This document shows positions 1,614-59,258 of a DNA stretch of 64,000 nucleotides, one piece after another; position 1 is the stretch's first letter; each line of letters begins with the position of its first letter. The stretch is from Candidatus Bathyarchaeia archaeon. GTDB taxonomy: Archaea; Thermoproteota; Bathyarchaeia; Bathyarchaeales; Bathycorpusculaceae. The stretch covers positions 1 to 64,000 of the forward strand of contig JBEKSS010000004.1 in the NCBI GenBank assembly GCA_049516875.1, in the 5' to 3' direction. Below the pieces are notes generated by a model that saw nothing but the letters and a program-made list of their open reading frames with translations, did no database searches and was not told the origin of the DNA. The translations under genes and the position numbers were made by a program.

Positions 1614-1823
1614 AGTTATGCTCGGAGCAATTATTGACTTGGCTATATCAGCGCGCGCGCGTGTATACGCAGGACATATTTTATATAGCTAGCTAGGAGC
1701 GTGCGCCCTAACTAGTCGATTTCTTAGACTGCGCTTTTTCAAGAACTATTGTTTTGCATCGGTTGGAATAATGTAGAACCTGTTAAATCCTTGGAAGATA
1801 GCCATTATAAGGAAGGCGAAAAC

Positions 1824-2003
1824 ATGGGCGATCACCGATGCGAGAATTGCGGGAAGATGTTCTACACTCGGTATGTGCAATACAAAGGCAAGTGCTTATG
1901 TCCAGAATGTAGGGGCAAATCGGACGCAGGCAAAAAAGAAAAGGAATACGGGGAAGCAAAAGAATACTGGGAAGCGAGGAAAAAGGAAGTGCGGGACTGT
2001 TGA
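1824..2003 (+). CDS. Small zinc-finger protein
   Basis: MGDHRCENCGK...CLCPEC, two CxxC pairs; RBS-like AGGAAGG; abuts next gene. Confidence 0.6.
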   Translation: MGDHRCENCGKMFYTRYVQYKGKCLCPECRGKSDAGKKEKEYGEAKEYWEARKKEVRDC

Positions 2004-2011
2004 TTGGGCAG

Positions 2012-3364
2012 ATGGTTAAGCTGAGGTTTTATGGTGGAGTTAACGAGATTGGTGGCAACAAGATTCTCCTGGAGGATAAGAAGACAAGAATTCTCTTTGA
2101 TTTTGGTCAGTCTTTCACCTTTGGCGCCGACTACTTTACAAGCTGGCTTAACCCGCGTCCAATAAACGGTCTAAAGGACCATTTTGAATTCGGTTTGCTA
2201 CCTAAGATTAGAGGACTCTACGCCAAGGAACAGCTGGCGTTCACCAACTTTCCGTATACGGAGCCGGAGATTGACGCGATTTTTCTGTCTCACGCTCACT
2301 TTGATCATGTGGCGCACATCTGCTTTGTTGACCCGCAGATTCCAGTGTATCTTGGTGCTGGCACTAAGCTGTTTTTGGAGTCGATGGAAGAGACCAGCGG
2401 TTACTGCGATTATAAGAAGCATGAGTATCGGACTTTTCGCACAGGAAAGAAGATCAAGATAGACGATGTTGTCGTGGAGCCCGTGCATGTGGATCATTCC
2501 ATTCCTGCTGCTTACGGCTTCGTCATACACACCTCTGAGGGCACGGTCGTCTACACTGGGGACTTGAGGATGCATGGTCCAAGGAAGGATTTGACTGAAG
2601 AATTCGTGGAGACAGCGAAGGAATGCGAGCCCGATGCTCTGATCTGCGAGGGTACGAGGATGGCGCTGAAAGAAAAACGCAAGAACTATTCCGAGTCGCA
2701 AGTGGAGCGGCTGAGCAACGAAATCGTTTCTTCGACTGACAAGATCGTTTTCATTACGCATTACAGCCGGGACATGGACCGGCTCAGAACCTTCCACACT
2801 GTGGCAATCAAAAACGGAAGAAAGATGGTGATCTCGCCGAAAACTGCTTACCTGTTGGGCAAGCTCATTCAGGATGAGCATTTGGATCTGCCTGATCCTT
2901 TGGAGGACGAGCATGTTCTCGTGTATTACAAGCGCAAGAAGTCTGGAACCTATGATGATACTGATTACTATGTTTGGGAGAGGCAGTTTATGGATAAGAT
3001 GGTGACGTACGAGTTTGTGCACAAGAACCAAGGCAAGCTTATCATGGACTTGGACTTCTACCAGTTTGCAGAGTTGATAGACATAAGGCCAAGTCGGGGC
3101 AGTCACTTCATTCACAGCATGAGCGAACCGTTCAGCGAAGAAGATATCCAAGACGCGGTTCTTCACAACTGGCTTGACCATTTTGGAATGCAGTTTCACC
3201 AGCTACACGCCTCTGGTCATCTGAATAGAGAACAGATAGGAAGCCTGGTCAGGGAGATAGACGCAAAGAAGGTTTTTCCTGTGCACACAGAGAACGCGCA
3301 GTTGTTCAAGCAGATAAGCAAGAATGCTCAGATGACAAAACGAGAAAAGGAATATAGAATTTAG
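2012..3364 (+). CDS. Metallo-beta-lactamase/beta-CASP nuclease (RNase J-like)
   Basis: GGVNEIGGN start, SHAHFDH, VDHS, YTGD, ICEGT, HASGH, PVHTE motifs; alternative start at 2000. Confidence 0.9.
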   Translation: MVKLRFYGGVNEIGGNKILLEDKKTRILFDFGQSFTFGADYFTSWLNPRPINGLKDHFEFGLLPKIRGLYAKEQLAFTNFPYTEPEIDAIFLSHAHFDHVAHICFVDPQIPVYLGAGTKLFLESMEETSGYCDYKKHEYRTFRTGKKIKIDDVVVEPVHVDHSIPAAYGFVIHTSEGTVVYTGDLRMHGPRKDLTEEFVETAKECEPDALICEGTRMALKEKRKNYSESQVERLSNEIVSSTDKIVFITHYSRDMDRLRTFHTVAIKNGRKMVISPKTAYLLGKLIQDEHLDLPDPLEDEHVLVYYKRKKSGTYDDTDYYVWERQFMDKMVTYEFVHKNQGKLIMDLDFYQFAELIDIRPSRGSHFIHSMSEPFSEEDIQDAVLHNWLDHFGMQFHQLHASGHLNREQIGSLVREIDAKKVFPVHTENAQLFKQISKNAQMTKREKEYRI

Positions 3365-3408
3365 CGCGCGAGAGACTCCAGCCCGAAATGTGGGTGTGAA
3401 ACAGATAG

Positions 3409-3945
3409 ATGGAAAGAAGCTTGAGAGCTGAAGTTAGCCGGTACATGAGTTATGTTCTCAGACATAATTCTGAAAACATCAATATGGACGAGTATGGTTT
3501 TGTTGATGTGAATGAGTTGCTGGAGAAGCTTCACGACCGCTTTCATATCGACCGGAGATTCATGGTGGAAATAGTAGAGAAAAGCCAGAGTAAGCGATTC
3601 GAGATCATAGACAATAAGATCAGAGCCTTGTATGGTCACACAATATCTGTGAAGTCTCAACTTGAGGAAGACACAGTCGTCGAATTGCTTTATCACGGAA
3701 CGACGCCTGATGCTGCCTTTAAGATTCTGAAAGAAGGATTGAAGCCGATGAAAAGAAGGTGGGTGCACTTGTCTCCAACAATGGAAACTGCAATAGAAGT
3801 CGGACTGAGAAGAACCAAGCGTCCTATCGTGCTGGAAATAGATGCGAAATCAGCTAGAGAGAATAGTTTGAGGTTCTACAAGGCGACTGACAAAGTCTGC
3901 GTAAGTGGCTCTATTTCGGCAAGATACATTAGAATCGTCTCCTAG
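3409..3945 (+). CDS. kptA: RNA 2'-phosphotransferase (Tpt1/KptA)
   Basis: SYVLRH, KRFE, IRALYGHT, LYHGT, GLKPMKRRWVHLS motifs. Confidence 0.92.
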   Translation: MERSLRAEVSRYMSYVLRHNSENINMDEYGFVDVNELLEKLHDRFHIDRRFMVEIVEKSQSKRFEIIDNKIRALYGHTISVKSQLEEDTVVELLYHGTTPDAAFKILKEGLKPMKRRWVHLSPTMETAIEVGLRRTKRPIVLEIDAKSARENSLRFYKATDKVCVSGSISARYIRIVS

Positions 3946-4142
3946 CGCGCGTGCGCTGACCCTGAATGAAACGTTTGTCCAGACTGTTTGGGTATGGTAT
4001 GACTCAATCTTCCATTTCGATAGTATGCTTTGAATGTCTTCTTGCATTTGGAGCAAACAAAAAGCTTAACGTGGAAAGCAGCAAATTCCCATTCCGTTGA
4101 GGAATCTGATGTTTTCTTTTCACATCTGGGGCACTTGACCAT
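3942..4142 (-). CDS. Small Zn-ribbon protein (Cren7-like pattern)
   Basis: CPRC...EW...VKLFVCSKCKKTF; paralog at 39943-40128. Confidence 0.7.
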   Translation of the reverse strand: MVKCPRCEKKTSDSSTEWEFAAFHVKLFVCSKCKKTFKAYYRNGRLSHTIPKQSGQTFHSGSAHAR

Positions 4143-4526
4143 TGTCAGACCTTATCTCATTGTCAGCAAACCTAAAGATAAAATTTTCGAAGAAGAGCTC
4201 AAGCCCATTGCTCTTTGTTAGCGGCGAACGTGAGAGGTCCTAGCGACTGTTCTTTGACTGGCTTGCTAACAAAAAGGCTGCAGAAGACATGGTCTCGGAA
4301 CTTGAAACTCAAGACGAGTAAGTGTGTGCGGGTAAAGTCTTGTTCCAAAACCCAAAACGCGCGCATGCGTATAACCTGTGCTTGAAGCGAAAGAAAGCCG
4401 AAAAAGAGTCTTTCGCCGAAGCAGTTCTTCTCCCTTGGAAAGTTACTTGTTGGTGAGTTGAAGACAAACGCGAAGCATGGAGCTTCTGTTGAGGGGCTAG
4501 TCATGATGTACGACTTGTTCGCGCGT

Positions 4527-4670: not shown

Positions 4671-5047
4671 TTCAATTACCTACTTTTTTAGTCCATATTT
4701 TTGTGCACGATTCGCACGTGTTAGATCTTTTTCCAATAAGCAAATTGCCAGATTCCAAGCGCTACTTTTATTCTTGTTACCATTTTCCATCATTCCAAAT
4801 CTGCTTATTCACATAGCATAGTATGCGCTTACCAGCTTATAAAGGTATTGGTTTAAGCGTTTAAGCGCTAAAGATATGGCCTGACGCATAATACGATAAC
4901 TCCTTTTTTTCTCTGATTTTGCGCCATTCATTTGGCTAACGCGCGGTGAACCTATATTGCATGTCGCTTTGGCTATGTAGAAGGCAGAAAATAGCTTATG
5001 CGGGAAAATGAAATAGTAAATAATAGAATCTGAATGGGGGTGAAACA

Positions 5048-6206: not shown

Positions 6207-6247
6207 AATCACAGCGCGCGCTATTTCATCATATCGAGCCAAAGTAG

Positions 6248-6826: not shown

Positions 6827-7054
6827 TCTATCTTCGAATTTCCTACTATAAAACTAGCACGCGCGCTTGAACCTAAGAAGACCAAGGGGGTCTTTGCAAA
6901 AATCTGGCATAGAACGCGCGCGCTTTTCAATTTGTCACATTTGATGGGCTTCTCAACATCTTCGAAAATTGCCTTTCTATCAAAAGGCTGCACATCTGGG
7001 TTTGGAAAGAAATCTATTGGGCGCTTTTCGAATCTTGTAAAGCCAGTTTGCCAA

Positions 7055-8629: not shown

Positions 8630-8907
8630 ACTGTGCTTCCAACCGACGTTTCAATCTGTATAAGAACTAGTTACAAATTCAACATTTAAGTCTTTTAGCG
8701 CGCGCTAGGGATGTTAAATCCACCTCGCCATTGTGCTCAAGATGACTTCTAAAAAGCACAGAAAGTTATCATCTAGAAGGCGACACCAAGACAAGGCATT
8801 AGAACAAAGAGCTGCGCGCTAGTTCATATTTCTGCTTCATAAAAGACTTATGCCGTCCATGGCAAAAATGTAAGGTTGTCCCAGATGAGAAAGCGGAGAT
8901 GTAGTGA

Positions 8908-9381: not shown

Positions 9382-9872
9382 ATCGAAAAAACCAAACAAC
9401 CATCTGTCTATTGGCGAAAGAATCCCCGATTGAGAAAGAAGCGCTAAACTCTCCGAACAGCAAGTGCAAAAGATTAAAGGTGGCCTTTCCACGTGTCACA
9501 CGGAGTGATGGATTCAAGGGAATTTTCGGTCCCAACTTGCACAACCAGGCTCTTCTTTTCTAAGCGCGCGAGGAAGTCTTGGAACTGGTTATGCTGTTCG
9601 TTCTTGAGCCATATGGCGAGAAGTCTGTTTCCATTGTGTCGTTTGCTCAGTCTTGTTCCTCCAGCAAACCGTTCTTTAGCGGTAAACTTGTATAGAGCCT
9701 TTTCGCAATATTTGCGTTAACGCGCGTTAACGCAGTTCAGGGAATAGTTCATGTTTTGTCCTTGAAAAGAAGCTCATTCCTTCGAGAACTGGTCACAGTT
9801 TCAAAAAGTCAAAAAGTTCCTCAAAAATGGTGTTGCGTTAATTGGAAATTCGCGAACAGGGAGAAAAACCGA

Positions 9873-9904: not shown

Positions 9905-10202
9905 TATTTTGTGACAAAAGCATGGTAAAAGCCGCTCTTTCTCACTTAGCGCGCGCCATGGTTAATATGTTCATCATGCCTGGTGCCAAGTCTGAAGCGT
10001 TTAGCATGCGCCTTTTTTTCAGTCATGCGCCCGCGCGCGCGGATAAGCAAGAACGTTCAGATGATAAAACGAGAAAAAGAATACGGGCTTTAGCGCGCGT
10101 GTCGACCAGATACACGAGAACTGTTCACGCTCCTGTCACGTTTGTTTGAAGAAAGGCTGGAATCTGATTCATGTTTTGGGGCCCCCAGCGCAGAACGAGT
10201 TT

Positions 10203-11717: not shown

Positions 11718-11746
11718 GCTTGAATAAGAGCGCTTAACGCGCGCTT

Positions 11747-12892: not shown

Positions 12893-13052
12893 CCAGAATC
12901 CTCAAAGCATGAGGTATTGAGATGAATTGTCTCCTAAAAGCTTAGCGCGCGTGGCAAAGTCTATTTCACAGAATTGGATGGCACGCGCGCTGTGATAATA
13001 ATCCTGTTGATACTCGCTCTGTTGGGCATGTCATCCGCGCGCGTAGCCTGCA

Positions 13053-13313: not shown

Positions 13314-13404
13314 AGTTCTCTATCGCCTCTTACTCTCTTTTATCGCTAGCGCGCGCTATTAACGAAAACTGTTAAGTAGCTAAGTCTCAGAACCTAGTGC
13401 TCAT

Positions 13405-14157: not shown

Positions 14158-14200
14158 CGTGCGTTATCAGCATTTGCTTTCGCGCGTGTGTACGCGCGCT

Positions 14201-14370
14201 TTGAGTGTATATGAGTGAGTGTAAGAGTGGTTGGTTAAGTTGGGTTTTGGGATAAAACTTTACCCTTTTTCTTCTTCTTCTCTCCTACTAACTCTCTCTT
14301 ACTCTCTCACTCTCTCTAAAAAAACAAACAAATAAAAAAAACACACACGCACACACACAAAAAACACACA
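14201..14370. repeat. Low-complexity imperfect inverted repeat followed by A/(CA)n tract
   Basis: GAGTGAGTGTAAGAGTGGTTGG arm vs CTACTAACTCTCTCTTACTCTCTCACTCTC arm, then ACACACACGCACACACAC. Confidence 0.55.
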
Positions 14371-14380
14371 GTCTATGATT

Positions 14381-14402
14381 TTGCGGAAAAGTTATAGCTG
14401 AA
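14381..14402 (+). promoter_or_regulatory. BRE-TATA promoter element
   Basis: TTGCGGAAAAGTTATAGCTGAA about 35 bp upstream of the GNAT gene; identical to 152-173. Confidence 0.65.
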
Positions 14403-14434
14403 ACGAAAGTTACGGTATGGTTTGGTGAGTTGGG

Positions 14435-14959
14435 TTGCTTGAAGGTAAACTTGTGAATCTGAAGGTATTGGAAAAAGATAATTTGCCATTGTTAGCTGAC
14501 TGGAGCAACAATCCAGAATTCTTTAGTGACTTTTGGTTTCCACAAATGTCTAAAACAGAGTGGGAAAAAAGGTATGACAGCCTCACCCCTGACACAAAGT
14601 GGTTCTTCATAGAGAAAAAAGACGGCATGAAAATCGGAACCGTCTTCTACTTTTTAAACGGAAACTTCATGGAAATAGGCTATATCCTCGTTCCGAACGA
14701 AAGGAAAAAAGGCTATGGGTCTGAAGCTATAAAAATCATTGTTGACTACCTGTTTCTTTCAAAGGAACTTGTGCGTGTTCAGGCTATTACTGGTGTGGAT
14801 AATTTTGCTTCTCACAGGGTTCTTGAAAAGGCAGGGTTCACAAAAGAAGGGATAATTCGTAAGAGTGCTTTCATCAGAGGAGAATGGAAAGACGGTTGTC
14901 TCTACAGCATCCTCAGGGAAGAATGGAAAGAACCAAAGATACTAACAAAAACCGCCTAA
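14435..14959 (+). CDS. GNAT N-acetyltransferase (RimJ/RimL family)
   Basis: EIGY, ERKKGYGSEA, NFASHRVLEKAGFTKEG. Confidence 0.9.
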   Translation: MLEGKLVNLKVLEKDNLPLLADWSNNPEFFSDFWFPQMSKTEWEKRYDSLTPDTKWFFIEKKDGMKIGTVFYFLNGNFMEIGYILVPNERKKGYGSEAIKIIVDYLFLSKELVRVQAITGVDNFASHRVLEKAGFTKEGIIRKSAFIRGEWKDGCLYSILREEWKEPKILTKTA

Positions 14960-14979
14960 GGAAAGCCAGTTTTTTGGTT

Positions 14980-14995
14980 TTGCGGAAAAGTTATA
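14980..14995 (+). promoter_or_regulatory. BRE-TATA promoter element
   Basis: TTGCGGAAAAGTTATA upstream of the NIPSNAP-like gene. Confidence 0.6.
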
Positions 14996-46218: not shown

Positions 46219-46292
46219 CAGAAAGCCTCACTCCATTCCTACGCCACCAAGACTTTGAAATACCTGCCTTCCAACTTTCAACTGTTTTGCCC

Positions 46293-46958
46293 TCATCTGA
46301 GCCTTGAGCCAGCTGACTTGGGGTCTCGGGCCACTCGAGCGCGCGTGTACAGGTGTCTGAACGCTGGCATGAACAGAGTGAGAATCCACAGTATGAACCT
46401 TATGCGGATGAAGGAATTGCCCACCGATATCCCCAAAGACCAGAAGACTGGTATTATGGATACGAGGAATATTGTGGTAGCTAGTAGCTCGAAATTCCTG
46501 AAGCGCCTGTATGTCAGCAGAAGGCTTTGGGGAACGAGCTTCTTGTCTTCGTCAGCGAGAGAATGGGTGAAGAACGCCAGAATCAAGAACAGCCCTGCAA
46601 GATCAATTGCGTAAAGGACAGACACGTTCTCAGCGAATGCTGAAGTGGAGGACCCAAGAATCTGGTTGAAGAGGAAGGGCTCTATTGAAACGAGGAAGAG
46701 CAGCACAATGTTGAGGTCAACGAGTCCTGCGGTCTCGACAGGAAGCAGATCCATCGTGTGCGTATACAATCGCCACACGTTTATCAGGATTAGGAAGCTG
46801 AACCCATAATAAAATAGGGAAATGAGAAGATTCTGGAAGTCCGAGGCTTGTTGACCTATCAGAGTCAGGGCGCCGATTGAGAGGGCCAACCCGAAGATAA
46901 GGTCAGAAAGAGACTGTATGCGCGGCCTCGGCCTGAAGCTTGAGTGTTCCTCGTTCAC
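46293..46958 (-). CDS. TMEM175-family potassium channel
   Basis: RIQSLSDLIFGLAL (RxxxFSD-like), six hydrophobic helices. Confidence 0.8.
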   Translation of the reverse strand: MNEEHSSFRPRPRIQSLSDLIFGLALSIGALTLIGQQASDFQNLLISLFYYGFSFLILINVWRLYTHTMDLLPVETAGLVDLNIVLLFLVSIEPFLFNQILGSSTSAFAENVSVLYAIDLAGLFLILAFFTHSLADEDKKLVPQSLLLTYRRFRNFELLATTIFLVSIIPVFWSLGISVGNSFIRIRFILWILTLFMPAFRHLYTRARVARDPKSAGSRLR

Positions 46959-47159
46959 ACAAGTAACTTCCTTTTTGAGTTTGGCATTGGCAAGAATTCA
47001 GCAAACACCATGAATATATTGTTTGTTGCAAACTGAAGCGCGCTCAGTTGTCGGTTCAGCCTAAACCTGCATGCTGAAAAGCCCCTCTGGTCTCCCCCTC
47101 AGAAGCGCCTACTAAAGTTTATGAACTCAGTTCGGACACTACGTCACAGGTGGAGAACG

Positions 47160-48665
47160 ATGACGTTGCAAGAATGGACGATTTCTGAAATGCAATCAAT
47201 GATGACCACAGGCAAGTTGACATCGCGTCGCCTCGCCGAGCTTTATCTGGAGCGGATTAACGCGATAGACAGTAACGGTCCAAAAGTGAACGCCGTCATA
47301 GAAACGAACCCCGACGCCTTGGCTATCGCGTCATCCCTCGACAATGAGCGACGCCGCGGCAAAACGCGTGGATCACTCCATGGCATTCCTGTCCTCATCA
47401 AAGACAACATCGACACACATGACCGAATGCAGACCACATCGGGTTCGCTTGCGCTCGCAGGGCACATCGCACCCCGTGACGCGTTCATCGTCAAGAAATT
47501 GCGTTCAGCAGGCGCAGTGATTTTAGGCAAGACCAACTTGAGCGAATGGTCGAATTTTCGCGGCAAACGCTCTGTCAGTGGTTGGTCGTCTCGTGGCGGA
47601 CTCACACGCAACCCCTACGCGCTTGATCGTTCCGCTTGCGGTTCGTCATCGGGTTCAGGCGCGGCGGTGGCGGCAAACCTGTGCGCAGCTGCGATTGGCG
47701 CTGAAACCGATGGCTCGCTTATTTGCCCGAGTCAAACGAATGGCATTGTTGGAATCAAACCTACGCTTGGCTTGTGGAGTCGAAGCGGTATGATTCCTGT
47801 TGCCCACAGTCAAGATACGGCTGGTCCCATGGCGCGCACTGTCGCGGATGCGGCGATTCTGCTCGGGGCACTGACTGGAGTTGATGAAGGGGATTCAGCT
47901 ACAAGGCTTAGCAAGAAGCGAGCGTTCGAAGACTACACTCAGTTCCTTGATAAGAACGGCCTCAAGGGCGCGCGGATTGGCGTTGCAAGAAGAATGGTTG
48001 GAACCGATAAACGCATCATCAAGATTTTTGAGTCGTGCCTTGATGTGATGAAGCAAATGGGAGCGGTAATTGTTGACCCAGCCGATGTACCCAACTTCAA
48101 AAAACTCCACAAGACCGAGATGGAGGTCTTGTATTACGAGTTCAAGACAGATTTGAACAAATATCTCGCGAGCACGAAGGCCCGCGTGAAAACGCTGGCC
48201 GAAGTCATCAAGTTCAATGAGGAAAACAAAGGCCGTGTGATGCCGTATTTTGGGCAGGAAGATATGGAGCTCGCACAAAAAAAGGGCTCACTGCATGACA
48301 AAAAGTACCGCGACGCACTTGCAAAGAATCACCGTCTGACACGCAAAGAAGGCATCGACGTGACCATGCGAACACACAAACTCGATGCAATCGTCGTGCC
48401 ATCAGGCGGTCCATCATGGACCATTGACTTGGTCAACGGCGATGCCATTAATTGGGACATGGATTGTACGTCACCAGCTGCAGTGGCAGGGTATCCACAC
48501 ATAACCGTGCCTGCGGGATACATCTTTGGTCTGCCAGTCGGCATTTCGTTCTTTGCAAAAGCATGGCAGGAACCCACACTCATCAGGTTGGCTTACGCGT
48601 TTGAGCAAGCAACGAAGGTTCGCAAGCCGCCAGAGTTCAGGCCAACAGCAAGCCTAAACCCTTGA
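47160..48665 (+). CDS. Amidase signature family protein
   Basis: GIPVLIKDN, GKTNLSE, GSSSGS, ETDGS, GIKPT. Confidence 0.93.
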   Translation: MTLQEWTISEMQSMMTTGKLTSRRLAELYLERINAIDSNGPKVNAVIETNPDALAIASSLDNERRRGKTRGSLHGIPVLIKDNIDTHDRMQTTSGSLALAGHIAPRDAFIVKKLRSAGAVILGKTNLSEWSNFRGKRSVSGWSSRGGLTRNPYALDRSACGSSSGSGAAVAANLCAAAIGAETDGSLICPSQTNGIVGIKPTLGLWSRSGMIPVAHSQDTAGPMARTVADAAILLGALTGVDEGDSATRLSKKRAFEDYTQFLDKNGLKGARIGVARRMVGTDKRIIKIFESCLDVMKQMGAVIVDPADVPNFKKLHKTEMEVLYYEFKTDLNKYLASTKARVKTLAEVIKFNEENKGRVMPYFGQEDMELAQKKGSLHDKKYRDALAKNHRLTRKEGIDVTMRTHKLDAIVVPSGGPSWTIDLVNGDAINWDMDCTSPAAVAGYPHITVPAGYIFGLPVGISFFAKAWQEPTLIRLAYAFEQATKVRKPPEFRPTASLNP

Positions 48666-48735
48666 TTCGCTTGCACGACAGGCGCGCGCTAAAAAACGAA
48701 ATCTTCTTTAGGTATATCTTAACTTGCTTGTGAAT

Positions 48736-49164: not shown

Positions 49165-49423
49165 CTTTAGACCTCTGATCTATACTTCTCTGAAGCGATT
49201 GTATTATATATATAACTTTTCCTTCCAAATTTGTTCGCACGAAGCGTTGGCGCGCGCTTAGAGAGGAACACAAGAAAGAATAGAAAGTGAAGGTAAGTGA
49301 ACGTAACGTTTTAATCGTAACGGCAACAATGCACTGCTAACACTCGCTTCACTCTCTGTTCGTTCGTTTCGTTCGCTATAGTAACAATACGCGCGCCAAT
49401 ATCAAGAATCAATACTTATTTTG

Positions 49424-49599: not shown

Positions 49600-49750
49600 T
49601 TCAAGCGAAAGGCTTCGACCATGTTGACCCTGCAGGCCTTAGCTCGTCATTGAATCCACGATTTTCCTACAGCCCGCGCTAAAGAAACTTCAAAAGCCAA
49701 TGTAACAAAGTTAGGCGCGCACGAGCTCGACAAGCGTGCCGAGGGAAAGC

Positions 49751-50086: not shown

Positions 50087-50451
50087 ATTATCGCCTCGTC
50101 ACCTCCTTTCTTCATTGTATTTCATTATATTTAGATTGTGGGAAATAGAACATAGTTCTAGAAAAAAAATTGAACAGAAATCCTGTCGCGCGCGCTCAGC
50201 GTTAACGGAAACAAGCCTTGAAAGTTGAGGAAAAGGAGGAAATTGACTTGGTTTGTTTTGGTTGGTTGGATTAAAATTCTATCCCCAACACAACCAACAA
50301 GGACCTCCTGACTCCACCATTCAGTTCTCACCTCAGAAAACAACATCAACGAGCAGCAAATTTTTTTAACGGCGGAACGCGTATTAATAAACAAAGGCGT
50401 TTTCAAGCCAAAATTCACTACATTCTTGTAGCGAAGACTTCAGGCAAGGTA

Positions 50452-51630
50452 ATGTCAGAATTGTCCACAAAACCTCGAGTTCCAGAATCGAACGAAGAAT
50501 ACGTTGCCTTTCTAGGCACATACACTCCTAGAGAATGCGGAATAGCCACCTTCACGAAAGACCTAATCGACTCCATAGACCGCCTCGGTGAATTCGCCCC
50601 AGCCCGAGTCATAAGCGTAAACGAAATAGAGACAATCTACGACTACGACAGCCGAGTCAAACAACAGATAAGGCAGGATTTCGAAGAGGATTACATTCAA
50701 GCCGCCAAGTACATCAACTCATCCCGAATCAACGCAGTAAACCTACAACACGAATTCGGAATATACGGAGGAGAATGGGGAAAGTATATCCTCTCCTTCC
50801 TACAAAACGTACACAAACCAGTCATAACCACACTCCACACACTCCAACCAGACTTTGAACCAAAAGCACGAAACGTGCTGAAAGAAATCACCGCTCACAG
50901 CAAAGCAATCGTGGTCATGGCAAGAGCCGCCAAGAACATTCTCAAGGAATACGACGTCCCAAACAAGAAAATCAACGTCGTCCAACACGGTTGCCCAGAC
51001 ATCCCCTTCTTAACCAGTGACAGCGTAAAACCTTCGCTGGGTTTGAAAGGAAGAACCATCCTGTCCACTTTCGGCCTAATAAACGGAGGCAAAGGCATCG
51101 AGTACGCCATCCAAGCACTCCCACCCCTAGTTGAAAAACATCCAAACATACTCTACCTAATAATCGGCGAAACACACCCCGAAGTAAGAAAAATCGAAGG
51201 CGAAACCTACCGCATGAACCTCATCAAACTAGTCGACCAACTGGGGCTAAAGAACCACGTCAGATTTCACAATCGCTTCCTAACAAAAAGGGAACTAATA
51301 AGGTACCTCCACGCCACAGACATCTACATCACACCCTACATCGGCCCAAACCAAATCAGCAGCGGCACACTAGTCTACGCTCTAGGAGCCGGCAGAGCAG
51401 TAGTATCAACTCCCTACCTCCACGCTAAAGAGGTGCTGTCTCACGGACGAGGCATGTTCTGCGAGTTCAAAAACCCAGACTCAATCGCCGAAGAGGTGAA
51501 GAAACTTCTAGAAAACGACAAACTGAGAAGAGACATAGAGAAAAAAGCTTACAGGTACAGTCGAAGCTTCATATGGCCAAAGGTCGCCCAAAAATACACA
51601 GACATACTCAAACAAGCGATACACGCTTAA
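50452..51630 (+). CDS. GT4 glycosyltransferase
   Basis: TYTPRECGIATF, QHEFG, TTLH, KGIE, SSGTL. Confidence 0.92.
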   Translation: MSELSTKPRVPESNEEYVAFLGTYTPRECGIATFTKDLIDSIDRLGEFAPARVISVNEIETIYDYDSRVKQQIRQDFEEDYIQAAKYINSSRINAVNLQHEFGIYGGEWGKYILSFLQNVHKPVITTLHTLQPDFEPKARNVLKEITAHSKAIVVMARAAKNILKEYDVPNKKINVVQHGCPDIPFLTSDSVKPSLGLKGRTILSTFGLINGGKGIEYAIQALPPLVEKHPNILYLIIGETHPEVRKIEGETYRMNLIKLVDQLGLKNHVRFHNRFLTKRELIRYLHATDIYITPYIGPNQISSGTLVYALGAGRAVVSTPYLHAKEVLSHGRGMFCEFKNPDSIAEEVKKLLENDKLRRDIEKKAYRYSRSFIWPKVAQKYTDILKQAIHA

Positions 51631-51642
51631 GAGGACGCTCAC

Positions 51643-52671
51643 GTGAATCTCCCACCTATCAAACTAAACTTCCTTAAAGCAATCACAGACGATACTGGTA
51701 TCTTTCAACATTCGAAATTCGGAACACCAAATCGGCTAGAAGGATACACGACCGACGACAACGCCCGAGCCCTCATAGCCATCACCAAGCACAGCCAAAT
51801 CAAAGGTATCTCCAAATCGGACAGGTTGATAGACACATACCTAAGCTTCCTTCTGCACATGCAAAGAGCAGACGGCAAAATGCATAACTTCCTAGGCTAC
51901 GATCGAAGCTTCATCGACGACGAAGGTTCCGAAGACTGTGCAGGTCGCACCCTATGGGCCTGCGGATACGTAATAAACAGCAAGCTATCAGCGGAGAGGA
52001 GACTTCTAGCAAAAGAAATCTTCGACAAAGCCTTTCGATGGGCATGCTTCTTCAAATCCCCCAGAGCGAAAGCCTTCGCAATACTTGGCCTAAGTCATTA
52101 CCACAAGGCCTACACAAAAGACCAAAACCTAACCCAGAACATAAAGGCACTATCAGACAAACTGCTCGAATACTACGCAAACACGCGCTCCAGCGACTGG
52201 CGCTGGTTTGAACCTTACCTCACCTACGTAAACGGTAGACTCCCGCAAGCCCTTTTCGAAGCCTACCGAGAAACAAAACAAGCCAAATACATTCGAGTCG
52301 CAGAGGAATCGCTAAAGTTCCTCCTTGAAGTTCAGATACTAAACAACAAATTCGTACCCATAGGCAACCACGGCTGGTACAAAAAAGGAAAACCGCGGCC
52401 CATATACGATCAGCAATCCGTGGAAGCAGCTTCAATGACGGAAGCAGCACTGTCAGCTTACCGCGAAACAGACAACCGCCACTACAAAACAATGGCACGA
52501 ACAATCTTCAACTGGTTTCTTGGGAAGAACACCCAAAACTCCTCTGTTTACAATTCCACCACAGGCAGCTGCTACGACGGAATAACCGAAAAAGGACTAA
52601 ACTACAACCAGGGAGCCGAAGCCACCGTTTGCTACCTTTCCGCCCGCATCGAACTTCAAACTACCAAATAG
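51643..52671 (+). CDS. Six-hairpin glycosidase-like partner of the GT4 enzyme
   Basis: DDTGIFQH, GYTTDDNARAL, WFE, YDQQ, NQGAE; this domain is commonly fused to or next to this GT4 subfamily. Confidence 0.8.
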   Translation: MNLPPIKLNFLKAITDDTGIFQHSKFGTPNRLEGYTTDDNARALIAITKHSQIKGISKSDRLIDTYLSFLLHMQRADGKMHNFLGYDRSFIDDEGSEDCAGRTLWACGYVINSKLSAERRLLAKEIFDKAFRWACFFKSPRAKAFAILGLSHYHKAYTKDQNLTQNIKALSDKLLEYYANTRSSDWRWFEPYLTYVNGRLPQALFEAYRETKQAKYIRVAEESLKFLLEVQILNNKFVPIGNHGWYKKGKPRPIYDQQSVEAASMTEAALSAYRETDNRHYKTMARTIFNWFLGKNTQNSSVYNSTTGSCYDGITEKGLNYNQGAEATVCYLSARIELQTTK

Positions 52672-52795
52672 AACGGCAAACAATATTGCCTTTATTCGCG
52701 CGGAAAGTCTCCCACACACGCGTTTTTGTGAGTCCTAAAACAGTTCGCCTTATTAGTCAAGAAAACCAAACCTAAGACAGAGGCGAAACCAGAAC

Positions 52796-53191
52796 GTGCT
52801 AATGGTAAAGCACATAATGATCGAAGACGTGGTAACCGCCAAGGTTAACATCACAATCAAAGACGTCGTCAGAACACTATACGAAAAACACGTGGGCTCA
52901 ATCGTAATAACGGACGACAACCAAAAATGCGTGGGTATCTTCACCGAGCGGGACGCCATAAGAATCATAGCCAACGAAGTCCCACTGGATACCGCCATCG
53001 ATCAAGTGATGACCAAGAATGTCGCCACAATAGGAGAAGAGGCTTCGCTAGAGGAAGCAAGACGACTCGTAATCTCACACGGAATCAGACACCTGCCAGT
53101 CGTAGACCCCAAAGGAGAACTAACCGGCCTACTCTCCGTCAGAAAACTCTTAGATGAACTCTTTGGATTTACCACGTCAAAAAACTACTAG
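52796..53191 (+). CDS. CBS-domain protein
   Basis: GIFTERD, IRHLPVVD. Confidence 0.9.
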   Translation: MLMVKHIMIEDVVTAKVNITIKDVVRTLYEKHVGSIVITDDNQKCVGIFTERDAIRIIANEVPLDTAIDQVMTKNVATIGEEASLEEARRLVISHGIRHLPVVDPKGELTGLLSVRKLLDELFGFTTSKNY

Positions 53192-53203
53192 GATACATAC
53201 AAA

Positions 53204-54097
53204 ATGAGACGGTCCCAAGACAACCCGATCCTTCAGCCAATAGCATCTAACCCCTGGGAATCGAAAGAAGTATTCAACGCTGCCGCCATAAGAGTCGGCA
53301 AACGAGTCCACATACTATACCGGGCAATAGGTAACGACGGCATATCCCGCATCGGATACGCCGCCTCCTCTGACGGATACAAAATCGACGAGCGGTCACC
53401 AGTCCCCGTTTTTGAACCCCACAACGAAGCTGAACGCTGGGGATGCGAGGACCCCAGACTAACGCTCTTCGGCGACCAAATAATAATGTCTTACACAGCC
53501 CTTTCCGAAATTGACCACGAACAGCTCTACCAGATCTCACTAGTATCCATCGCAATTGGCGATTTCTTGAGCAAACAATGGAAATGGAACGAACGACTAT
53601 TGCCATTCAGAGGCATACACAACAAAGACGCCGTCATTTTCCCAAAAAAAATCGGAGGCAAGTACGTCATGTTTCATCGCCTAGAGCCAGACATGTGCGT
53701 GGCGTACTCCGACGACCTCAGAAGATGGTACGACATCAGGTCCTTGATGAGACCAAGAAGGAAAAGCTGGGACTGCTGGAAAGTAGGCGCAGCCGGACCC
53801 CCCATCGAACTCAACGAGGGCTGGCTCCTTATCTACCACGGCGTGAGTTTCGAGAAGGTCTATTCGCTTGGCGTAATCCTGCTGGACAGAGACAATCCCG
53901 AAACCATTCTGTACCGCTCCGAAACACCCATACTAACACCCGTCACCGACTACGAGCGCTTCGGCAAAGTGCCTAACGTGGTGTTCAGCTGTGGAAACGT
54001 ACTCATCAACGACGAAGTCCTAGTGTACTACGGAGGCGCCGACAGCGTAATGTGCGTGGCAACATACGAACTAAACGAACTAATGCCCAAAAAATAA
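53204..54097 (+). CDS. GH130 glycoside phosphorylase/hydrolase
   Basis: NPIL, VFNAA, LYRA, GCEDPR, NKD, YHG, VPNVVF, YYGGAD. Confidence 0.9.
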   Translation: MRRSQDNPILQPIASNPWESKEVFNAAAIRVGKRVHILYRAIGNDGISRIGYAASSDGYKIDERSPVPVFEPHNEAERWGCEDPRLTLFGDQIIMSYTALSEIDHEQLYQISLVSIAIGDFLSKQWKWNERLLPFRGIHNKDAVIFPKKIGGKYVMFHRLEPDMCVAYSDDLRRWYDIRSLMRPRRKSWDCWKVGAAGPPIELNEGWLLIYHGVSFEKVYSLGVILLDRDNPETILYRSETPILTPVTDYERFGKVPNVVFSCGNVLINDEVLVYYGGADSVMCVATYELNELMPKK

Positions 54098-54168
54098 AAC
54101 CCCAACTAAGCAAACGCTCAACCGAACTTGACGACCACCGGAACCAAAGCTAAGAAGCCCGGCAACCG

Positions 54169-54522
54169 TCACATCAACAACATGCTATTCTCCATGGAGT
54201 CTTTTGTCTGAACCGCCATTACAGGCGATTCTATGGAAAAATACGCGTCCCCGCTTGCATACCCGCAGACCGAAAAGTAAGCCCGCGCCAATGAAGAGAC
54301 AAAAACCCGAAACTTAACATTCTCATCTGCGCTGGGCATCAAAGCGTAGACAAAGCACCCAGCGCAATCAACTGAAAACCCCGGATCTGGGGAGTGCAGC
54401 CGCAAAACCAAATTCTTCAAGATGCTGCTTCCAACGTTTTTCAGGTTCAACGTCAAGAAGTGGTCACCTGCAATCTTCGTTGTCGATAACAACTTAAACT
54501 CCAACCGAACCTTAACGACCAC
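54169..54522 (-). CDS. Small Ig/CARDB-like hypothetical protein
   Basis: GTG start after AGGAGG; LTLNLKNVG...L beta pattern. Confidence 0.55.
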   Translation of the reverse strand: MVVKVRLEFKLLSTTKIAGDHFLTLNLKNVGSSILKNLVLRLHSPDPGFSVDCAGCFVYALMPSADENVKFRVFVSSLARAYFSVCGYASGDAYFSIESPVMAVQTKDSMENSMLLM

Positions 54523-54719
54523 CTTGAACCTCCTAATACTCAGAAACTCGAACAGACATATTATATTCCTCGGCAAAGCTCTTAAAACTTTGCGCGCGCG
54601 CATTTGGGGTCAAATCCCACCGGACCCGCTCATATATAGTGTGTGCTTCTTCTCTGAAACACTACAAAATCGAGTTACTCGGTCTCCAGTGTGCGTACAA
54701 TCAGAGTCGCATGGAGACT

Positions 54720-54932
54720 GCGCGCGCTATAAATTCTCGTCAATAAAATGTAGGATAACCTTAGTATTTTACCGGTAAACATGTGTTCAATTGTTAGCCC
54801 CCGCACACTAAGGTCCTAAATTGAGTTTATTTCGGCTAATTAAGCTCAGAATAAGCCTAAAATTAGAATGCGGGGGGTGGGACCCCCACCCGAGTTTACC
54901 GGTAAAATGTGTCTGGAACGTTCGCGCGCGCG
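54720..54932. repeat. Imperfect ~210-bp palindrome bounded by (CG)n runs
   Basis: TTTTACCGGTAAAC-N17-CCCCCGCA at 54767-54805 and inverted at 54869-54907; related copy at 57502-57538. Confidence 0.7.
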
Positions 54933-56028: not shown

Positions 56029-56907
56029 ATGAACGAAACAGAAACAATATCTGAGAACAAAGTGCCGAGCAGCCTTACACAAGTCGGCATCACTATGAAA
56101 TACACGTTCCTCGACTACTTCAGATCGCGCAGATTCTTCATACTCCTAATTATCACTCTCATCATAAGTGCCATCCTCACCGTCTTGGTGGGATACTACC
56201 GCCCCCAAATTTTTCTAGGTGATCCAACTCTTGACGCGAGCACGCGCGAGCTGATATTCTATTCAAGCTGGTGGGGCCGCAGCGTCACCTTCGTGATCAT
56301 ACTCGGAGGGATATTCTTCGGCGGAGACGCCATCAGCGGCGAATTCCAAAACAAAACGGGCTACTTCGGAGTTCCAAACCCCATCCGAAGATCGAGCATA
56401 TACATTGGCAAGTGGCTATCGGCCTTTATTGCAGCCACCATAATCTTCGCCATCTTTGCAGCCATCACCGTTGGCAACGGGTTATACTACTTCGGCGCTA
56501 ACGTCCCCATCCAATTTGGTCAATCACTTCTCTACGCCTGGTTTTACCTAGCCGCAGTAATGGGCTTCACTTTCTTCTTCAGTTCACTGTTCAAGAGCAA
56601 CAGCATGTCTATCCTCGTGACCGCGATCCTTTTTCTCTTCGTGTTCTCACTGATAGAACTGCTTGTTTCAAGCCTCGTCAATTTTGAACCCTGGTTCATC
56701 CTAACCTACGGGGCCGGAATAATCGGAAACATACTAAACCCCGGAGGGTTCCCGGAACACATCACACATACCCCTGTAGGCCGGGGAGGATTGACCATAA
56801 CCTCCTACAGTGCCTATGTCCCCGAAGGCCTAGTCATAATAGGACTGTACTTCATCATAACCGCGATATTGGGATTGGTCCTCTTCGAGAGGAAAGAGTT
56901 TACCTAG
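56029..56907 (+). CDS. ABC-2 type transporter permease
   Basis: DAISGEFQNKTG, PIRRSSIYIGK, six TM segments. Confidence 0.9.
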   Translation: MNETETISENKVPSSLTQVGITMKYTFLDYFRSRRFFILLIITLIISAILTVLVGYYRPQIFLGDPTLDASTRELIFYSSWWGRSVTFVIILGGIFFGGDAISGEFQNKTGYFGVPNPIRRSSIYIGKWLSAFIAATIIFAIFAAITVGNGLYYFGANVPIQFGQSLLYAWFYLAAVMGFTFFFSSLFKSNSMSILVTAILFLFVFSLIELLVSSLVNFEPWFILTYGAGIIGNILNPGGFPEHITHTPVGRGGLTITSYSAYVPEGLVIIGLYFIITAILGLVLFERKEFT

Positions 56908-57311: not shown

Positions 57312-57637
57312 AGGCGTGATTTGACGGAACACCTGTTCACGCGCTGTTGTCTGCGCATAAGCCACGTTAAGCACTCATAAATGTTGTTTGTCGGAGCTCT
57401 TCGACGCTAAACAAGAATCATATAACGGTGTGACGAGAGTAATCATGCACAGTGGGCAAGGTAGAGTAAACAATGGAGAAAGAAGCGGTTTCTAAGCGCG
57501 CGCGGGTGGTGGGGCCCCACCGGACTTTACCGGTAGAAACACCATGGTACGGCAGGTCTGCCCGTCCCACCTGATCGAACAAATTGGCTAGTTCTTGCTT
57601 AGCGCTGAACAAAAGGCTGTGTTTCAGACAAAGTATT

Positions 57638-58018
57638 CTATGGAAAGAGTTTGAGTCCAAGGGCTTTGAGGGGGCTGAAGTGTTTCAAGTCGAAGGTGAA
57701 GAGGGCTGCCCCGTTGTTTATGGTCATCGCGGCTATCATAGCATCAGTTCTGCGTATGGAAGTTCCATTTTCTTCTGCTTCAAGCTCTATTTTGCTGGAG
57801 AGGACTGCATCCTTTTTCATATAGTTCAAAACAGGTAACAACAGAATCTCTTTGACTGGTTTTCCATACTTGTGGAGGCCGTAGAGTATCTCGTGTATGT
57901 TGATGACAGTTGTGCATATTTCTTCTTCACTCTGAAGAATCTGCTTGAGAGCTTCGTCACCTTTTACTGATTTCTTGTCCAGTATCTCAATCAACACGTC
58001 CGTGTCTATCGCGATCAT
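57638..58018 (-). CDS. vapC: PIN-domain toxin
   Basis: IDTDVLI, HE, DAMIAA, TFD..HF. Confidence 0.9.
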   Translation of the reverse strand: MIAIDTDVLIEILDKKSVKGDEALKQILQSEEEICTTVINIHEILYGLHKYGKPVKEILLLPVLNYMKKDAVLSSKIELEAEENGTSIRRTDAMIAAMTINNGAALFTFDLKHFSPLKALGLKLFP

Positions 58019-58227
58019 CTTCTTCGTTCAGCCCTGGAAGAACTTATCTCTGAAAGCATCTCTTTCTTCTTTCTGAACTCTACACTCGCCCTGAGTTTTG
58101 ATAGCGTTTCTAGTGGATCCTTATTTTCTGCAAGCCTATCAAATAGCTCACTGAAGCTTTCATCCTTCTTCTTGATGGTCAGCAGTTTTCTATACACTTC
58201 TTCTCGGATGGTTATAGTCTTGACCAG
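58015..58227 (-). CDS. vapB: VapB-family antitoxin, apparent CTG start
   Basis: (L)VKTITIREEVYRKLLTIKKKDESFSELFDRL; ATGA overlap with vapC. Confidence 0.8.
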   Translation of the reverse strand: MVKTITIREEVYRKLLTIKKKDESFSELFDRLAENKDPLETLSKLRASVEFRKKKEMLSEISSSRAERRR

Positions 58228-58282
58228 GATGGATCACGTGAATCTGTATGTTTAAACGTACACTTAAACATTACTGGAACCG

Positions 58283-58549
58283 CGCGCGCTGTGCGTGGAC
58301 AAAACAGGCGTAGGAGACGCAGTAGTAGACGAGCTGGAAACAATTCGAGTCGGAAGCGTTAACGGTGTTTTCTTCACGGAAGCTGAAAAAGAAAACATGC
58401 TCAATCGCCTCAAACTCCTCATGAAGAAAAAACTTCTCAAAATCCCAGGCGACGACAGACAACTAATAACCCAGATAAACGAACAGCAATACGAGTACCT
58501 CCAACCCAAAACAGCACAAGAACGAATCCACCTCAAGTTCAAGCATCCA
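58283..58549 (+). pseudogene. Internal fragment of a viral large terminase nuclease domain
   Basis: CVDKTGVGDAVVDEL...GVFFT...K..M...LK..M....LKIP...LI.Q...QY....KFKHP resembles the terminase C-terminal RNase H-like domain; no ATPase domain and no HDD motif. Confidence 0.65.
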
Positions 58550-58687
58550 TCGATTGTCATTATTGTGCCACTTTTTAAAAATCTCTACTTTTCCAGCATC
58601 AACATGCGTGCAATGTGATGTTCAAAGGTGAATTTCGAATTCACAAAGAATATCTTGCTTTCACAACAACAAAATTCACGACTCATC

Positions 58688-59104
58688 ATGCCAGAAAAAT
58701 CCAAACAAAACAAGAAGAGAATACGCCAAAGCGTGAGAGTTGAAGGCAAAGCCGTCAGAACACTCAGAACATTAAGCAACGAAGAAGCTTTCTATTTCTA
58801 CGAAACCATCGGCAAGCCAACCGGACAGAGCGCCAGAAGCCTCAATGAATTCCTGGACAAAATCAAATCCGTAAAGCTTGAAAGCTTGGTTTTCCATCTC
58901 CAAAGAAATGACTTCAAAAATTGGATTGCAAACACACTCGAAGATCCCAAGCTGGCCCAAAAAATCCAGATGCTCCCCACAGAACACAAAGGCCAGCTCA
59001 GAACAAATATCTGCACAACCGTCGAAGCCCATCTTAAAGAACTAGAAGGAACTTCAGTGCAAGTCGATGACCTCTACGTGTCTCAGCCCAGCATCGCACA
59101 TTAG
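58688..59104 (+). CDS. DUF5752-family protein
   Basis: EAFYFY...TGQSARSLNEF...SLVFH...DFKNWI. Confidence 0.75.
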   Translation: MPEKSKQNKKRIRQSVRVEGKAVRTLRTLSNEEAFYFYETIGKPTGQSARSLNEFLDKIKSVKLESLVFHLQRNDFKNWIANTLEDPKLAQKIQMLPTEHKGQLRTNICTTVEAHLKELEGTSVQVDDLYVSQPSIAH

Positions 59105-59258
59105 AATATCCAAGAACTGATTCAAAGACACCGTCGTTGACTCAACAGACTAGGCATTACAGGCCGCTCCATTCCATCCAGACCCCTGCAGCTCCCACAC
59201 CAATAACAGTTCCTATAGAAACGCGCGCTAGAGATATATCGCAGATGTTCGCTGTCTG

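Follow-up and report, generated by a model that had tools for sequence, protein, structure and literature searches.

The described systems closest to the one treated here are the insertion sequences (IS) of the IS5 family, the HIP1 palindrome and the REP sequences. IS5 itself has a short palindromic target and produces a 4-bp duplication. HIP1, the highly iterated octameric palindrome GCGATCGC of cyanobacteria, is frequent within genes, and its CGATCG core is methylated. REPs form hairpins, exceed the runs considered below in length and are spread by RAYT (Y1) transposases. According to Tobes and Pareja (2006, PMC1525189), REP sequences of bacteria serve as targets of IS and are places of high genome plasticity. 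The present analysis deals with short alternating C/G runs in the first 64 kb of contig C4 (the window) of a Bathyarchaeia genome, the assembly of which comprises 2.43 Mb in 20 contigs with 47% G+C (G000, the genome under study). Bathyarchaeia are abundant uncultured archaea of sediment and peat, and their gene exchange is largely unknown. A first-pass annotation of the window had taken the runs for the borders of gene-cassette-like arrays and proposed an undescribed recombination or gene-capture system. We lean, with considerable reserve, towards a different reading, namely that runs of the form A(GC)3-5T are sites at which an IS5-family transposon system breaks and joins DNA in this lineage.

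A run is defined here as a maximal alternating C/G stretch of at least 6 bases, and its coding or intergenic status was taken from our own rough caller of open reading frames (ORFs). The genome holds 1123 runs (0.46 per kb) with lengths of 6 (503), 7 (204), 8 (240), 9 (112), 10 (56) and 11 bases (5) as well as one 12-mer, and thus a sharp stop above 10. Its most over-represented 8-mer is GCGCGCGC, observed 447 times versus 23.3 expected from base composition. The comparison with a Markov background suggested in the first-pass annotation reveals an excess that is genome-wide and mainly intergenic: the density reaches 1.62 per kb between genes versus 0.18 per kb in coding DNA, a 9-fold difference, and 332 intergenic runs of at least 8 bases stand against 77.7 +/- 7.0 in order-3 Markov simulations. 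This test is conservative because the same intergenic DNA served to train the simulations. The run density is 1.59 per kb in tandem spacers, 1.41 in divergent and 2.29 in convergent ones. The distances from gene starts and stops are widely scattered (median 122 and 171 nt), the 30 nt upstream of start codons are avoided, and the runs are clumped, with a variance/mean of 3 over 10-kb bins.

The consensus form A(GC)3-5T has a preferred phase, since intergenic (GC)4 occurs 183 times versus 16 for (CG)4, and (GC)3 221 times versus 68 for (CG)3. An A precedes the run at 52% of ends, and the profile of all 2246 run ends shows no conservation past positions -1 and -2. The phase bears on an explanation that needs no specific enzyme, in which Z-DNA or cruciforms would stall replication, cause breaks and let the runs grow by slippage. 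Z-DNA alone, which the first-pass annotation had named as an alternative, is unlikely because of the ratio of 183 to 16; an 11-fold surplus of (GC)4 and the preference for A...T flanks are not predicted by structure. Moreover, runs arise as 5-11 nt insertions in non-repetitive sequence, new junctions gain runs that were formerly not there, and the motif is confined to one lineage. Fragility would agree with strain indels at run edges: the sole difference between the window and a contig matching it over the other 5.8 kb is a 46-nt indel containing a run, a 724-nt indel between two contigs 99.5% alike adjoins a run and shows 3-nt microhomology, and a further joint lies at 58289. The sharp upper limit of 10 nt could likewise reflect instability of longer tracts. 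Taken together, fragility or slippage as the only cause appears very improbable.

Among the relatives, which are kin and not independent samples, the motif is unevenly distributed. AGCGCGCGCT occurs 98 times in the genome under study versus 4 times for the reversed control TCGCGCGCGA; there are 29-115 copies in the four other genomes of the genus (G001-G004), 63 in G033 of another genus and 0-11 in the other 35. The one-mismatch neighbours of the 10-mer are together about as numerous as the perfect motif, and transitions among them are 3-5 times as frequent as transversions, a spectrum which by a rough argument fits birth followed by neutral decay better than selection. Clean gain or loss of runs as discrete 5-11 nt indels in collinear sequence was seen in 4 among 19 cases listed. 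In a run-dense stretch of contig C12 (66.7-69 kb), the segments between runs are unique sequence, not repeats. This stretch (C12:66700-69000) consists of 2.2 kb of mostly non-coding DNA with 11 runs and unique segments of 2-570 nt between them, and in G002 a single GCGCGCGC replaces it as a whole between the same flanking blocks.

The sole DDE_Tnp_1 match of the genome is a 307-aa ORF on contig C7 (DDE_Tnp_1 6.1e-14, DUF772 8.6e-9) within an IS of 1.1 kb, both ends of which consist of GCGCGC followed by TG(G/C)CTTGTC(C/T)C. In copies of this type from 5 genomes both ends read GCGCGCTG(G/C)CTTGTCCC. Transposases 86-89% identical to that of C7 and flanked by the same GCGCGC ends are present in G001, G003, G004 and G033, and a sister IS with a 43-46% identical transposase was found in G002, G004 and G033. 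The ends of the G002 sister IS, GCGCGCATGCGTGTTCCTAAATT (also read as GCGCGCATGCGTGTTCC), are identical to the terminus of MITEs (miniature inverted-repeat transposable elements) in the genome under study. The IS measure about 1.1 kb, with transposases of 307-333 aa and terminal inverted repeats (TIRs) of 17-23 bp, which were read by eye, a 9-nt exact-seed repeat search having reported no pair. A full-length member of this clade occurs in all 6 motif-rich genomes, and full-length copies were found only there. Motif-poor relatives yielded partial matches of at most 42% identity as well as two matches extending over most of the query at 36% (G023) and 26% (G005), and G036 with 7 motifs carries IS fragments at 83-92%. 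A search for enzyme genes that track the motif, as the first-pass annotation had suggested, leads to this transposase clade and not to the tyrosine recombinases. The latter were rejected as the enzyme, since the family is found throughout the order (36 of 41 relatives) with copy numbers out of step with the motif; G003 has 2 matches and 69 motifs, G006 11 matches and 1 motif.

At least three MITE families derived from the IS likewise have GCGCGC at either end. MITE-A (188 bp) is represented by 14 full copies in the genome with the pattern (T)A-GCGCGC-ATGCnTGTTCCkAAAwT...mirror...GCGCGC-T(A), and the TGTTCC/TGTCCC core recurs in related families. The TIR core is matched at 79 places; a run lies within 16 nt of 51 of them, and at 45 the run is exactly 6 nt long at a spacing of 5 nt. 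MITE copies also exist in G002, in G033 and in metagenome contigs. Outside the GCGCGC ends, five IS copies lack direct repeats, and a target duplication, if there is one, would thus have to be sought within the run itself. Two MITEs are located in the window as parts of a composite insert:

41439..41444, run of 6 nt, with which both MITE-A and the 1-kb composite insert begin on the left; in a population variant this point is connected to the DNA beyond the insert
41438..41625, 188-bp copy of MITE family A with termini of GCGCGC and TIR (TGTTCCkAAAwT core)
41618..41623, run of 6 nt, right end of MITE-A
41623..42291, minus strand, ORF of 222 aa without Pfam match, between MITE-A and the MITE-B-like element
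42316..42321, run of 6 nt, forms the left terminus of the element that follows
42316..42437, MITE family B-like element, right end short of 46 nt (TIR tip, GCGCGC and 35 nt)

The 46 nt missing from the right end are kept in the contig that is identical over the other 5.8 kb. In one contig from another peat sample, position 41444 is joined to 42440 via 37 nt homologous to the far flank, as that flank is kept in the near-identical 5.8-kb contig. The empty site therefore reads (GC)4 versus (GC)3-[MITE-A, 222-aa ORF, MITE-B, about 1 kb]-(GC)3 in the window strain, a net gain of GCGC. This one comparison fits a 4-bp GCGC duplication inside the run. Population variants, here and below, were read from assembled contigs, not from raw reads. 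Coverless parts, depth and the contig joint 41625->42953 were excluded as evidence, as were the joints 42437->49474/49555, which have short sides and lie in a region of high-copy repeats. The flanks of the 14 MITE-A copies gave no usable empty site in the G002 sample; a possible one at G002 C1:5333 was discarded, its right flanks not being alike.

According to the reading we lean towards, the transposase would insert into the GCGC core of an alternating run and duplicate this core; an occupied site would then have the structure (GC)3-element-(GC)3, whereas (GC)4 would mark a site that is empty or has been vacated. Solo runs, which may be targets, scars or both, would be created and lengthened where duplications are retained or excision is imprecise and would later decay through ordinary transitions. 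Most of the roughly 1000 solo runs would in this way stem from IS5-family activity. Because elements, gene-carrying MITE pairs and transposase-induced breaks would concentrate at the runs, blocks of one gene or a small operon bounded by them would be reshuffled, deleted and exchanged, and run-bounded genes would be mobilised by the same transposase. The cassette look of 1.6-14.2 and 40.3-59.8 kb would be a by-product of composite mobilisation, adjacent rearrangements and repeated insertion at hot spots. As to the mechanisms listed in the first-pass annotation, a transposon with CG target duplication fits best, and a trans-acting recombinase or dedicated gene-capture machine is not supported; the cassette-like layout of the window is partly supported.

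Several observations weigh against this reading. If solo (GC)4 runs were doubled GCGC duplications and in turn served as targets, (GC)6 should be common, though it is nearly absent (one 12-mer). Some derived junctions have a run where the ancestral sequence contains no GCGC, and target-specific insertion alone is therefore insufficient. The filled/empty case is one contig of one sample, no clean insertion of a single IS or MITE into otherwise collinear sequence was found, 11 full-length copies in the DNA of relatives have no empty site in the genome under study, and both of the MITE sites inspected proved to be breakpoints beyond which the DNA is unrelated. Boundary-anchored repeat families account for just 82 of 2242 run flanks, and the TIR cores next to a run number 51. 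More than 90% of the runs are solo, with no transposon sequence or conserved flank beside them, which makes their link to the IS indirect. The genome contains a single full-length transposase; repeats are often left unassembled in assemblies of this kind. In addition, the gene calls are crude. Finally, the motif-rich genera seem to form one clade, and the shared distribution of motif and IS may therefore amount to about one independent event. An MBL/beta-CASP protein of the genome is 79% identical to that of G033, 71% to that of G036 and 44-46% to those of two other genera, distances from one protein with paralogues that serve as a rough guide only; HerA as a distance marker gave no match at E <= 1e-50 in the 5 genomes tried.

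A bolder variant would go further. A(GC)nT runs alone might be minimal, sufficient ends for the IS5-family transposase, and any gene between two runs would then be movable in either orientation. Each scar or duplicated target would provide a new pair of transposon ends, giving a self-propagating cassette system of 8-10 bp palindromes. This would explain both the run-bounded single-gene units with varying neighbours and the runs at formerly run-less junctions, and we regard it as a rather unlikely proposal.

Other origins were considered and dropped. A single MITE-like family behind all runs is ruled out by the flat flank profile and by the 82 of 2242 flanks in families. For a TA-duplicating transposon of the IS630/mariner type with excision footprints, there is no DDE_3 match, and TA is not found on both sides of any IS copy; TA flanks 11 of the 14 MITE-A copies. 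Cytosine methylation with a very-short-patch-type repair driving the gain of GCGC was rejected, as there is no C5 methyltransferase in the genomes searched of the motif-rich genus; PF00145 had no match in G000, G001, G003, G004 and G033. In the genome under study, which is 97% complete, Y1_Tnp (PF01797) has 0 matches, the rve profile likewise 0, and one TnpB-like ORF is present.

Where DNA has been exchanged or rearranged, its edges coincide with the runs. Matches of the 1-14 kb genes to sister species are single and scattered, only NurA-Rad50 being syntenic. When four G002 contigs (720 kb, 30% of G002) were compared with the whole genome under study, a run was present in 14 of 203 spacers with conserved adjacency (0.86 per kb) versus 26 of 58 with broken adjacency (1.72 per kb), and the equal frequency in conserved syntenic spacers that would have spoken against the proposal of the first-pass annotation is not observed. 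Spacers beside genes without orthologue have 2.3-2.4 runs per kb and those with orthologues of both neighbours 1.4. Ends of BLAST blocks lie at most 3 nt from a run in 18 of 59 cases at >=92% identity, in 18 of 119 at 86-92% and in 16 of 447 at 80-86%, compared to 2.2% of random intergenic positions and 1.0% of gene ends. Homology to the genome under study reaches 96 of the 314 intergenic runs in the G002 sample, and at 87 of these it breaks or jumps while 9 are collinear; among 779 control intergenic positions 285 are reached, 122 of them breakpoints and 163 collinear. In this respect the link of runs to boundaries drawn in the first-pass annotation holds. In the window, the following units and runs are concerned:

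41417..45407, segment of about 4 kb, not between the nitroreductase and cyclase genes in two sister species; GCGCGC bounds at 41439 and 45389
45389..45394, run of 6 nt, left edge of the cyclase unit; adjoins a 6-nt gain (CGCGCT) relative to the ancestral-type spacer
45389..46345, minus strand, glutaminyl cyclase single-gene unit; homology to several related contigs ends at the flanking runs, neighbours vary
46339..46345, run of 7 nt inside a called ORF, junction unique to this lineage; relatives have CTCGACCAGCC and no run
46339..47043, minus strand, run-bounded segment with most of the TMEM175-like ORF 46293-46958; the left run lies in the 3' part of the ORF
50187..50195, run of 9 nt, opens a 4.7-kb block 97% identical in a sister species, there adjoining a tRNA 3' end
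50187..54882, plus strand, this 4.7-kb block, 97% with sister species G002; run at its start, 13-nt tRNA 3'-end fragment at its end
54720..54727, run of 8 nt, GC in the sister species; clean 6-nt GCGCGC gain or loss inside the 97% block
57496..57504, run of 9 nt, left edge of the vapBC unit
57496..58289, vapBC-type unit with PIN-domain ORF 57638-58018; 94-95% to copies elsewhere in relatives, those without both runs
58281..58289, run of 9 nt, closes the vapBC unit on the right; in a contig from another sample, 58289 is followed by 58588 (intervening letters not known)

Homology upholds several unit boundaries drawn in the first-pass annotation, those of the vapBC and glutaminyl cyclase units. 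The vapBC match comprises 57502-58280 at 95% to a copy elsewhere in G004, which lacks both runs. The cyclase match extends in several related contigs from 45389/45396 to 46337/46338, that is, between the runs 45389-45394 and 46339-46345, and in metagenome contigs the unit 45389-46338 is kept while the neighbours change. At about half of the distinct junctions in the cyclase region a run lies exactly at the break, often where uninterrupted relatives have none. In one contig (L163), the cyclase gene is truncated at residue 230, with GCGCGCGCG at the junction and unrelated DNA behind it. Beyond the truncated gene (L163:3489-4900), our own reading of the reverse strand shows an apparent N4/N6-type DNA methyltransferase gene, which would be typical mobile cargo beside a run junction. 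One related-population contig joins 46279 to 47098, positions on either side of the TMEM175-like segment (intervening letters not known). After the Rad50 stop the window has the decayed run AGAACACGCTG, two sister species have AGAGCGCGCTG and CGCGCGCGC, and synteny stops at the run or decayed run in all three genomes. At one site four genomes of two genera are alike up to a run or its remnant and fully different beyond.

These junctions are the ground on which the dedicated system imagined in the first-pass annotation has to be judged, in which a trans-acting recombinase would cross over within the (GC)n core and capture cassettes in either orientation. The cyclase (45389-46345) and vapBC (57496-58289) units are run-bounded on both sides with neighbours that differ between genomes, the 1-kb segment is present or absent with a single run at the empty site, the blocks at some junctions start exactly with the run in both genomes, and about 8 tyrosine recombinase genes are available in the genome. 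However, at most inspected junctions just one genome of the pair has the run, which is missing from the uninterrupted ancestral sequence. Reciprocal run-by-run crossover cannot yield such one-sided runs, and the idea that the runs are simple crossover cores is inadequate, because a run is found at many derived junctions for which the ancestral state is run-less. Furthermore, no conserved recombinase-binding arms surround the core, runs also occur in syntenic spacers, the copy number of tyrosine recombinases does not follow the motif, and the present/absent segment of 1 kb is bounded by transposon TIRs. All 10 Phage_integrase matches are on contigs other than that of the window, and recombinase families had no match among the called ORFs of the window that were scanned (not all of them). 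A dedicated recombination or gene-capture system of this kind is improbable.

The presence of runs in conserved spacers leads to the explanation that the palindrome is maintained by the host as a binding or structural site, where IS and MITEs only land and where breakpoints cluster since insertions are harmless. Apart from the 14 of 203 conserved spacers in G002, this agrees with a correlated presence in orthologous spacers (6 shared, 8 + 3 unshared, 186 without), with run remnants kept at one site in four genomes of two genera, with a spacing of about one run per 2 kb that avoids the 30 nt before start codons, and with the more than 90% of runs that have no adjoining transposon sequence; REP elements, documented as IS targets (PMC1525189), would offer a precedent. 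A maintained site is opposed by the broad scatter of distances to gene starts and stops, by a one-mismatch spectrum that resembles neutral decay and not purifying selection, and by the fact that only 9 of the 96 homology-reached runs are collinear. Neither a Y1/RAYT transposase (genome under study) nor a C5 methyltransferase (the five genomes named above) was found, and no candidate binding protein was identified. We consider a host-maintained palindrome unlikely, to about the same degree as the minimal transposon ends, and prefer the transposon system.

Within the window, computation confirms much of what had been counted by eye. It contains 46 runs, 23 in 1651-14199, as estimated, and 23 in 40357-59714, where the estimate of about 19 in 40.3-59.3 kb was too low (22 up to 59231), and none in 14200-40356, the repair plus defence block of 26 kb already described as run-free. 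From the genome-wide densities 7.7, 6.8 and 9.4 runs are expected in 1.6-14.2, 14.2-40.4 and 40.4-59.8 kb, with 23, 0 and 23 observed, and the Poisson probability of an empty repair/defence block is 0.001. The rough ORF caller puts 40 of the 46 between genes or at the edge of an ORF, in line with the description as almost all intergenic, and 6 lie within called ORFs (40357, 46339, 47832, 47968, 56243 and 59708). The AG/CT or TAG/CTA flanks noted before recur as an A before the G-end or a T after the C-end in 30 of 46, with TAG/CTA on at least one side of 17, and the full palindrome TAGCGCGCGCTA is indeed found at 8696-8707 and 13347-13358. The remaining runs and the run-free block are:

1651..1661, run of 11 nt
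3364..3370, run of 7 nt, first G being the final base of the TAG stop of ORF 2000-3364
3945..3951, run of 7 nt, overlaps the TAG stop of the Tpt1/KptA ORF 3409-3945
4358..4364, run of 7 nt
4520..4525, run of 6 nt
4940..4945, run of 6 nt; a 92% sister-species match begins at 4940
6214..6221, run of 8 nt
6860..6866, run of 7 nt
6915..6923, run of 9 nt; the match to a FIST-unit paralogue begins at 6918
8698..8705, run of 8 nt inside the full palindrome TAGCGCGCGCTA
8814..8819, run of 6 nt
9564..9570, run of 7 nt
9721..9726, run of 6 nt
9949..9956, run of 8 nt
10032..10041, run of 10 nt
10093..10099, run of 7 nt
11738..11744, run of 7 nt
12945..12951, run of 7 nt
12984..12990, run of 7 nt
13036..13043, run of 8 nt
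13349..13356, run of 8 nt inside the full palindrome TAGCGCGCGCTA; 91% ZIP-unit matches begin at 13362
14181..14186, run of 6 nt
14193..14199, run of 7 nt
14200..40356, run-free block with NurA-HerA-Mre11-Rad50 genes and four large defence-type genes
40357..40366, run of 10 nt inside a called ORF
47038..47043, run of 6 nt
47832..47837, run of 6 nt inside the amidase ORF
47968..47974, run of 7 nt inside the amidase ORF
48682..48689, run of 8 nt; a 95% block common with a related contig ends at 48689
49250..49257, run of 8 nt
49390..49396, run of 7 nt
49715..49720, run of 6 nt
52697..52702, run of 6 nt
54592..54601, run of 10 nt
54923..54932, run of 10 nt
56243..56248, run of 6 nt inside an ORF
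59222..59228, run of 7 nt
59708..59714, run of 7 nt inside an ORF

The NurA-HerA-Mre11-Rad50 genes of the window are archaeal, and the nearest HerA loci belong to metagenome-assembled genomes of Bathyarchaeota/Bathyarchaeia with 85-96% aa identity. Directly behind Rad50, on the minus strand of 23752-39742, there are genes for a UvrD/RecD-type helicase of 1269 aa, a 1752-aa fusion of a DEAD helicase with an MrfA Zn-binding (DUF1998-type) domain, an N6 methylase of the Eco57I/MmeI type with 1326 aa and a SNF2 helicase of 977 aa, which we take to be a DISARM-like defence cluster. At the DNA level this cluster is absent in the four sister species searched. Neither Rfam families nor, by ARAGORN, tRNAs were found in the window. 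Its bases 1-122 are identical to the final 122 bases of contig C3 (C3:238637-238758), and because of this identity at the contig ends C3 and C4 probably adjoin.

A second kind of junction element beside the runs is a repeat at 54870-54907 and 57505-57540, also present at G002 and G004 loci (L092, L091), which starts with a 13-nt tRNA 3'-end fragment and continues with a GGGTGGG-ACC-CCCACCC hairpin and GAGTTTACCGGTAAAA. In G002 the 4.7-kb block with this repeat adjoins the ends of real tRNA genes, and one related-population contig joins 54907 to 57551, between the repeat copies, skipping the ABC-transporter genes. The repeat looks like the remnant of an integrase att site. At 14369-15006, a GNAT acetyltransferase gene (174 aa) is part of a repeated unit, about 630 bp in size, with ends that match one another in inverted orientation (150-189 versus 14963-14995 of the window). 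Five paralogues exist in the genome (loci at C15, C4:168-171 kb and C1:48 kb) and copies in sister species; the unit may be a small mobile one of another kind. ORFs of 84-113 aa from 1703-6226 are found together again in G002 (C1:2.6-3.6 kb, C2:2.0-3.5 kb) and G003 (C1:940-945 kb), where their order and orientation vary. The window region and its counterparts are run-dense stretches of reshuffled small units, and the small repeated ORFs in 1.7-6.2 kb have no informative Pfam match. At 49339-50005, the summed contig depth is very high in four samples (up to 5092 versus about 300 beside it), and many contig joints going back at 49454-49593 indicate a high-copy or tandem repeat with AC-rich variants. 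Seven paralogues (e.g. on C3, C7 and C13) of a 118-aa protein, Alba-like by eye, would be an unusually large chromatin/RNA-binding family.

Should runs and transposon be causally linked, these genomes could be mapped for their mobile fraction and recombination hot spots by simply scanning the sequence, and the transposase would become a candidate for an enzyme with selectivity for GCGC runs. For annotation it should be considered that short ORFs and gene ends beside runs may be truncated or fused through rearrangement.

In comparison with known systems, the elements resemble the IS5 family in the DDE_Tnp_1 + DUF772 architecture, the size of about 1.1 kb, the terminal inverted repeats and the MITEs with the same termini, and a GCGC core target with a putative 4-bp duplication would resemble that of IS5. 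Unlike in this family, both ends adjoin exactly GCGCGC, the putative target is the top oligomer of the genome, and solo copies outnumber elements about 20 to 1. With REP sequences the runs share that they are abundant intergenic palindromes, tied to rearrangement and, presumably here as well, targeted by specific IS, whereas they are units of 8-12 bp without conserved flanks in an archaeal host with no Y1 transposase in the genome under study. Like HIP1 they are a lineage-specific, GC-rich palindrome of 8 bp which is the top over-represented oligomer and linked to rearrangements; in contrast to it they are 9-fold enriched between genes, and the five genomes searched have no C5 methyltransferase. 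Integron cassettes are similar in having one gene per unit with neighbours varying between genomes, but here the ORFs lie on both strands, there is no array beside an integrase, the core of 6-10 bp has no flanking arms, and no attC-like structure is seen in the profile of 2246 run ends (an attC-specific model was not applied). From a mere Z-DNA-forming tract the runs differ in that phase matters, (GC)n being far above (CG)n. In the titles and opening lines of abstracts of the literature searched, the motif is not reported from archaea. The run/IS system would be an archaeal counterpart of the bacterial REP/IS and HIP1 puzzles, and what is new is an archaeal genus whose top oligomer is a palindrome of 8-10 bp associated both with a family of transposons and with the borders between exchanged genes.

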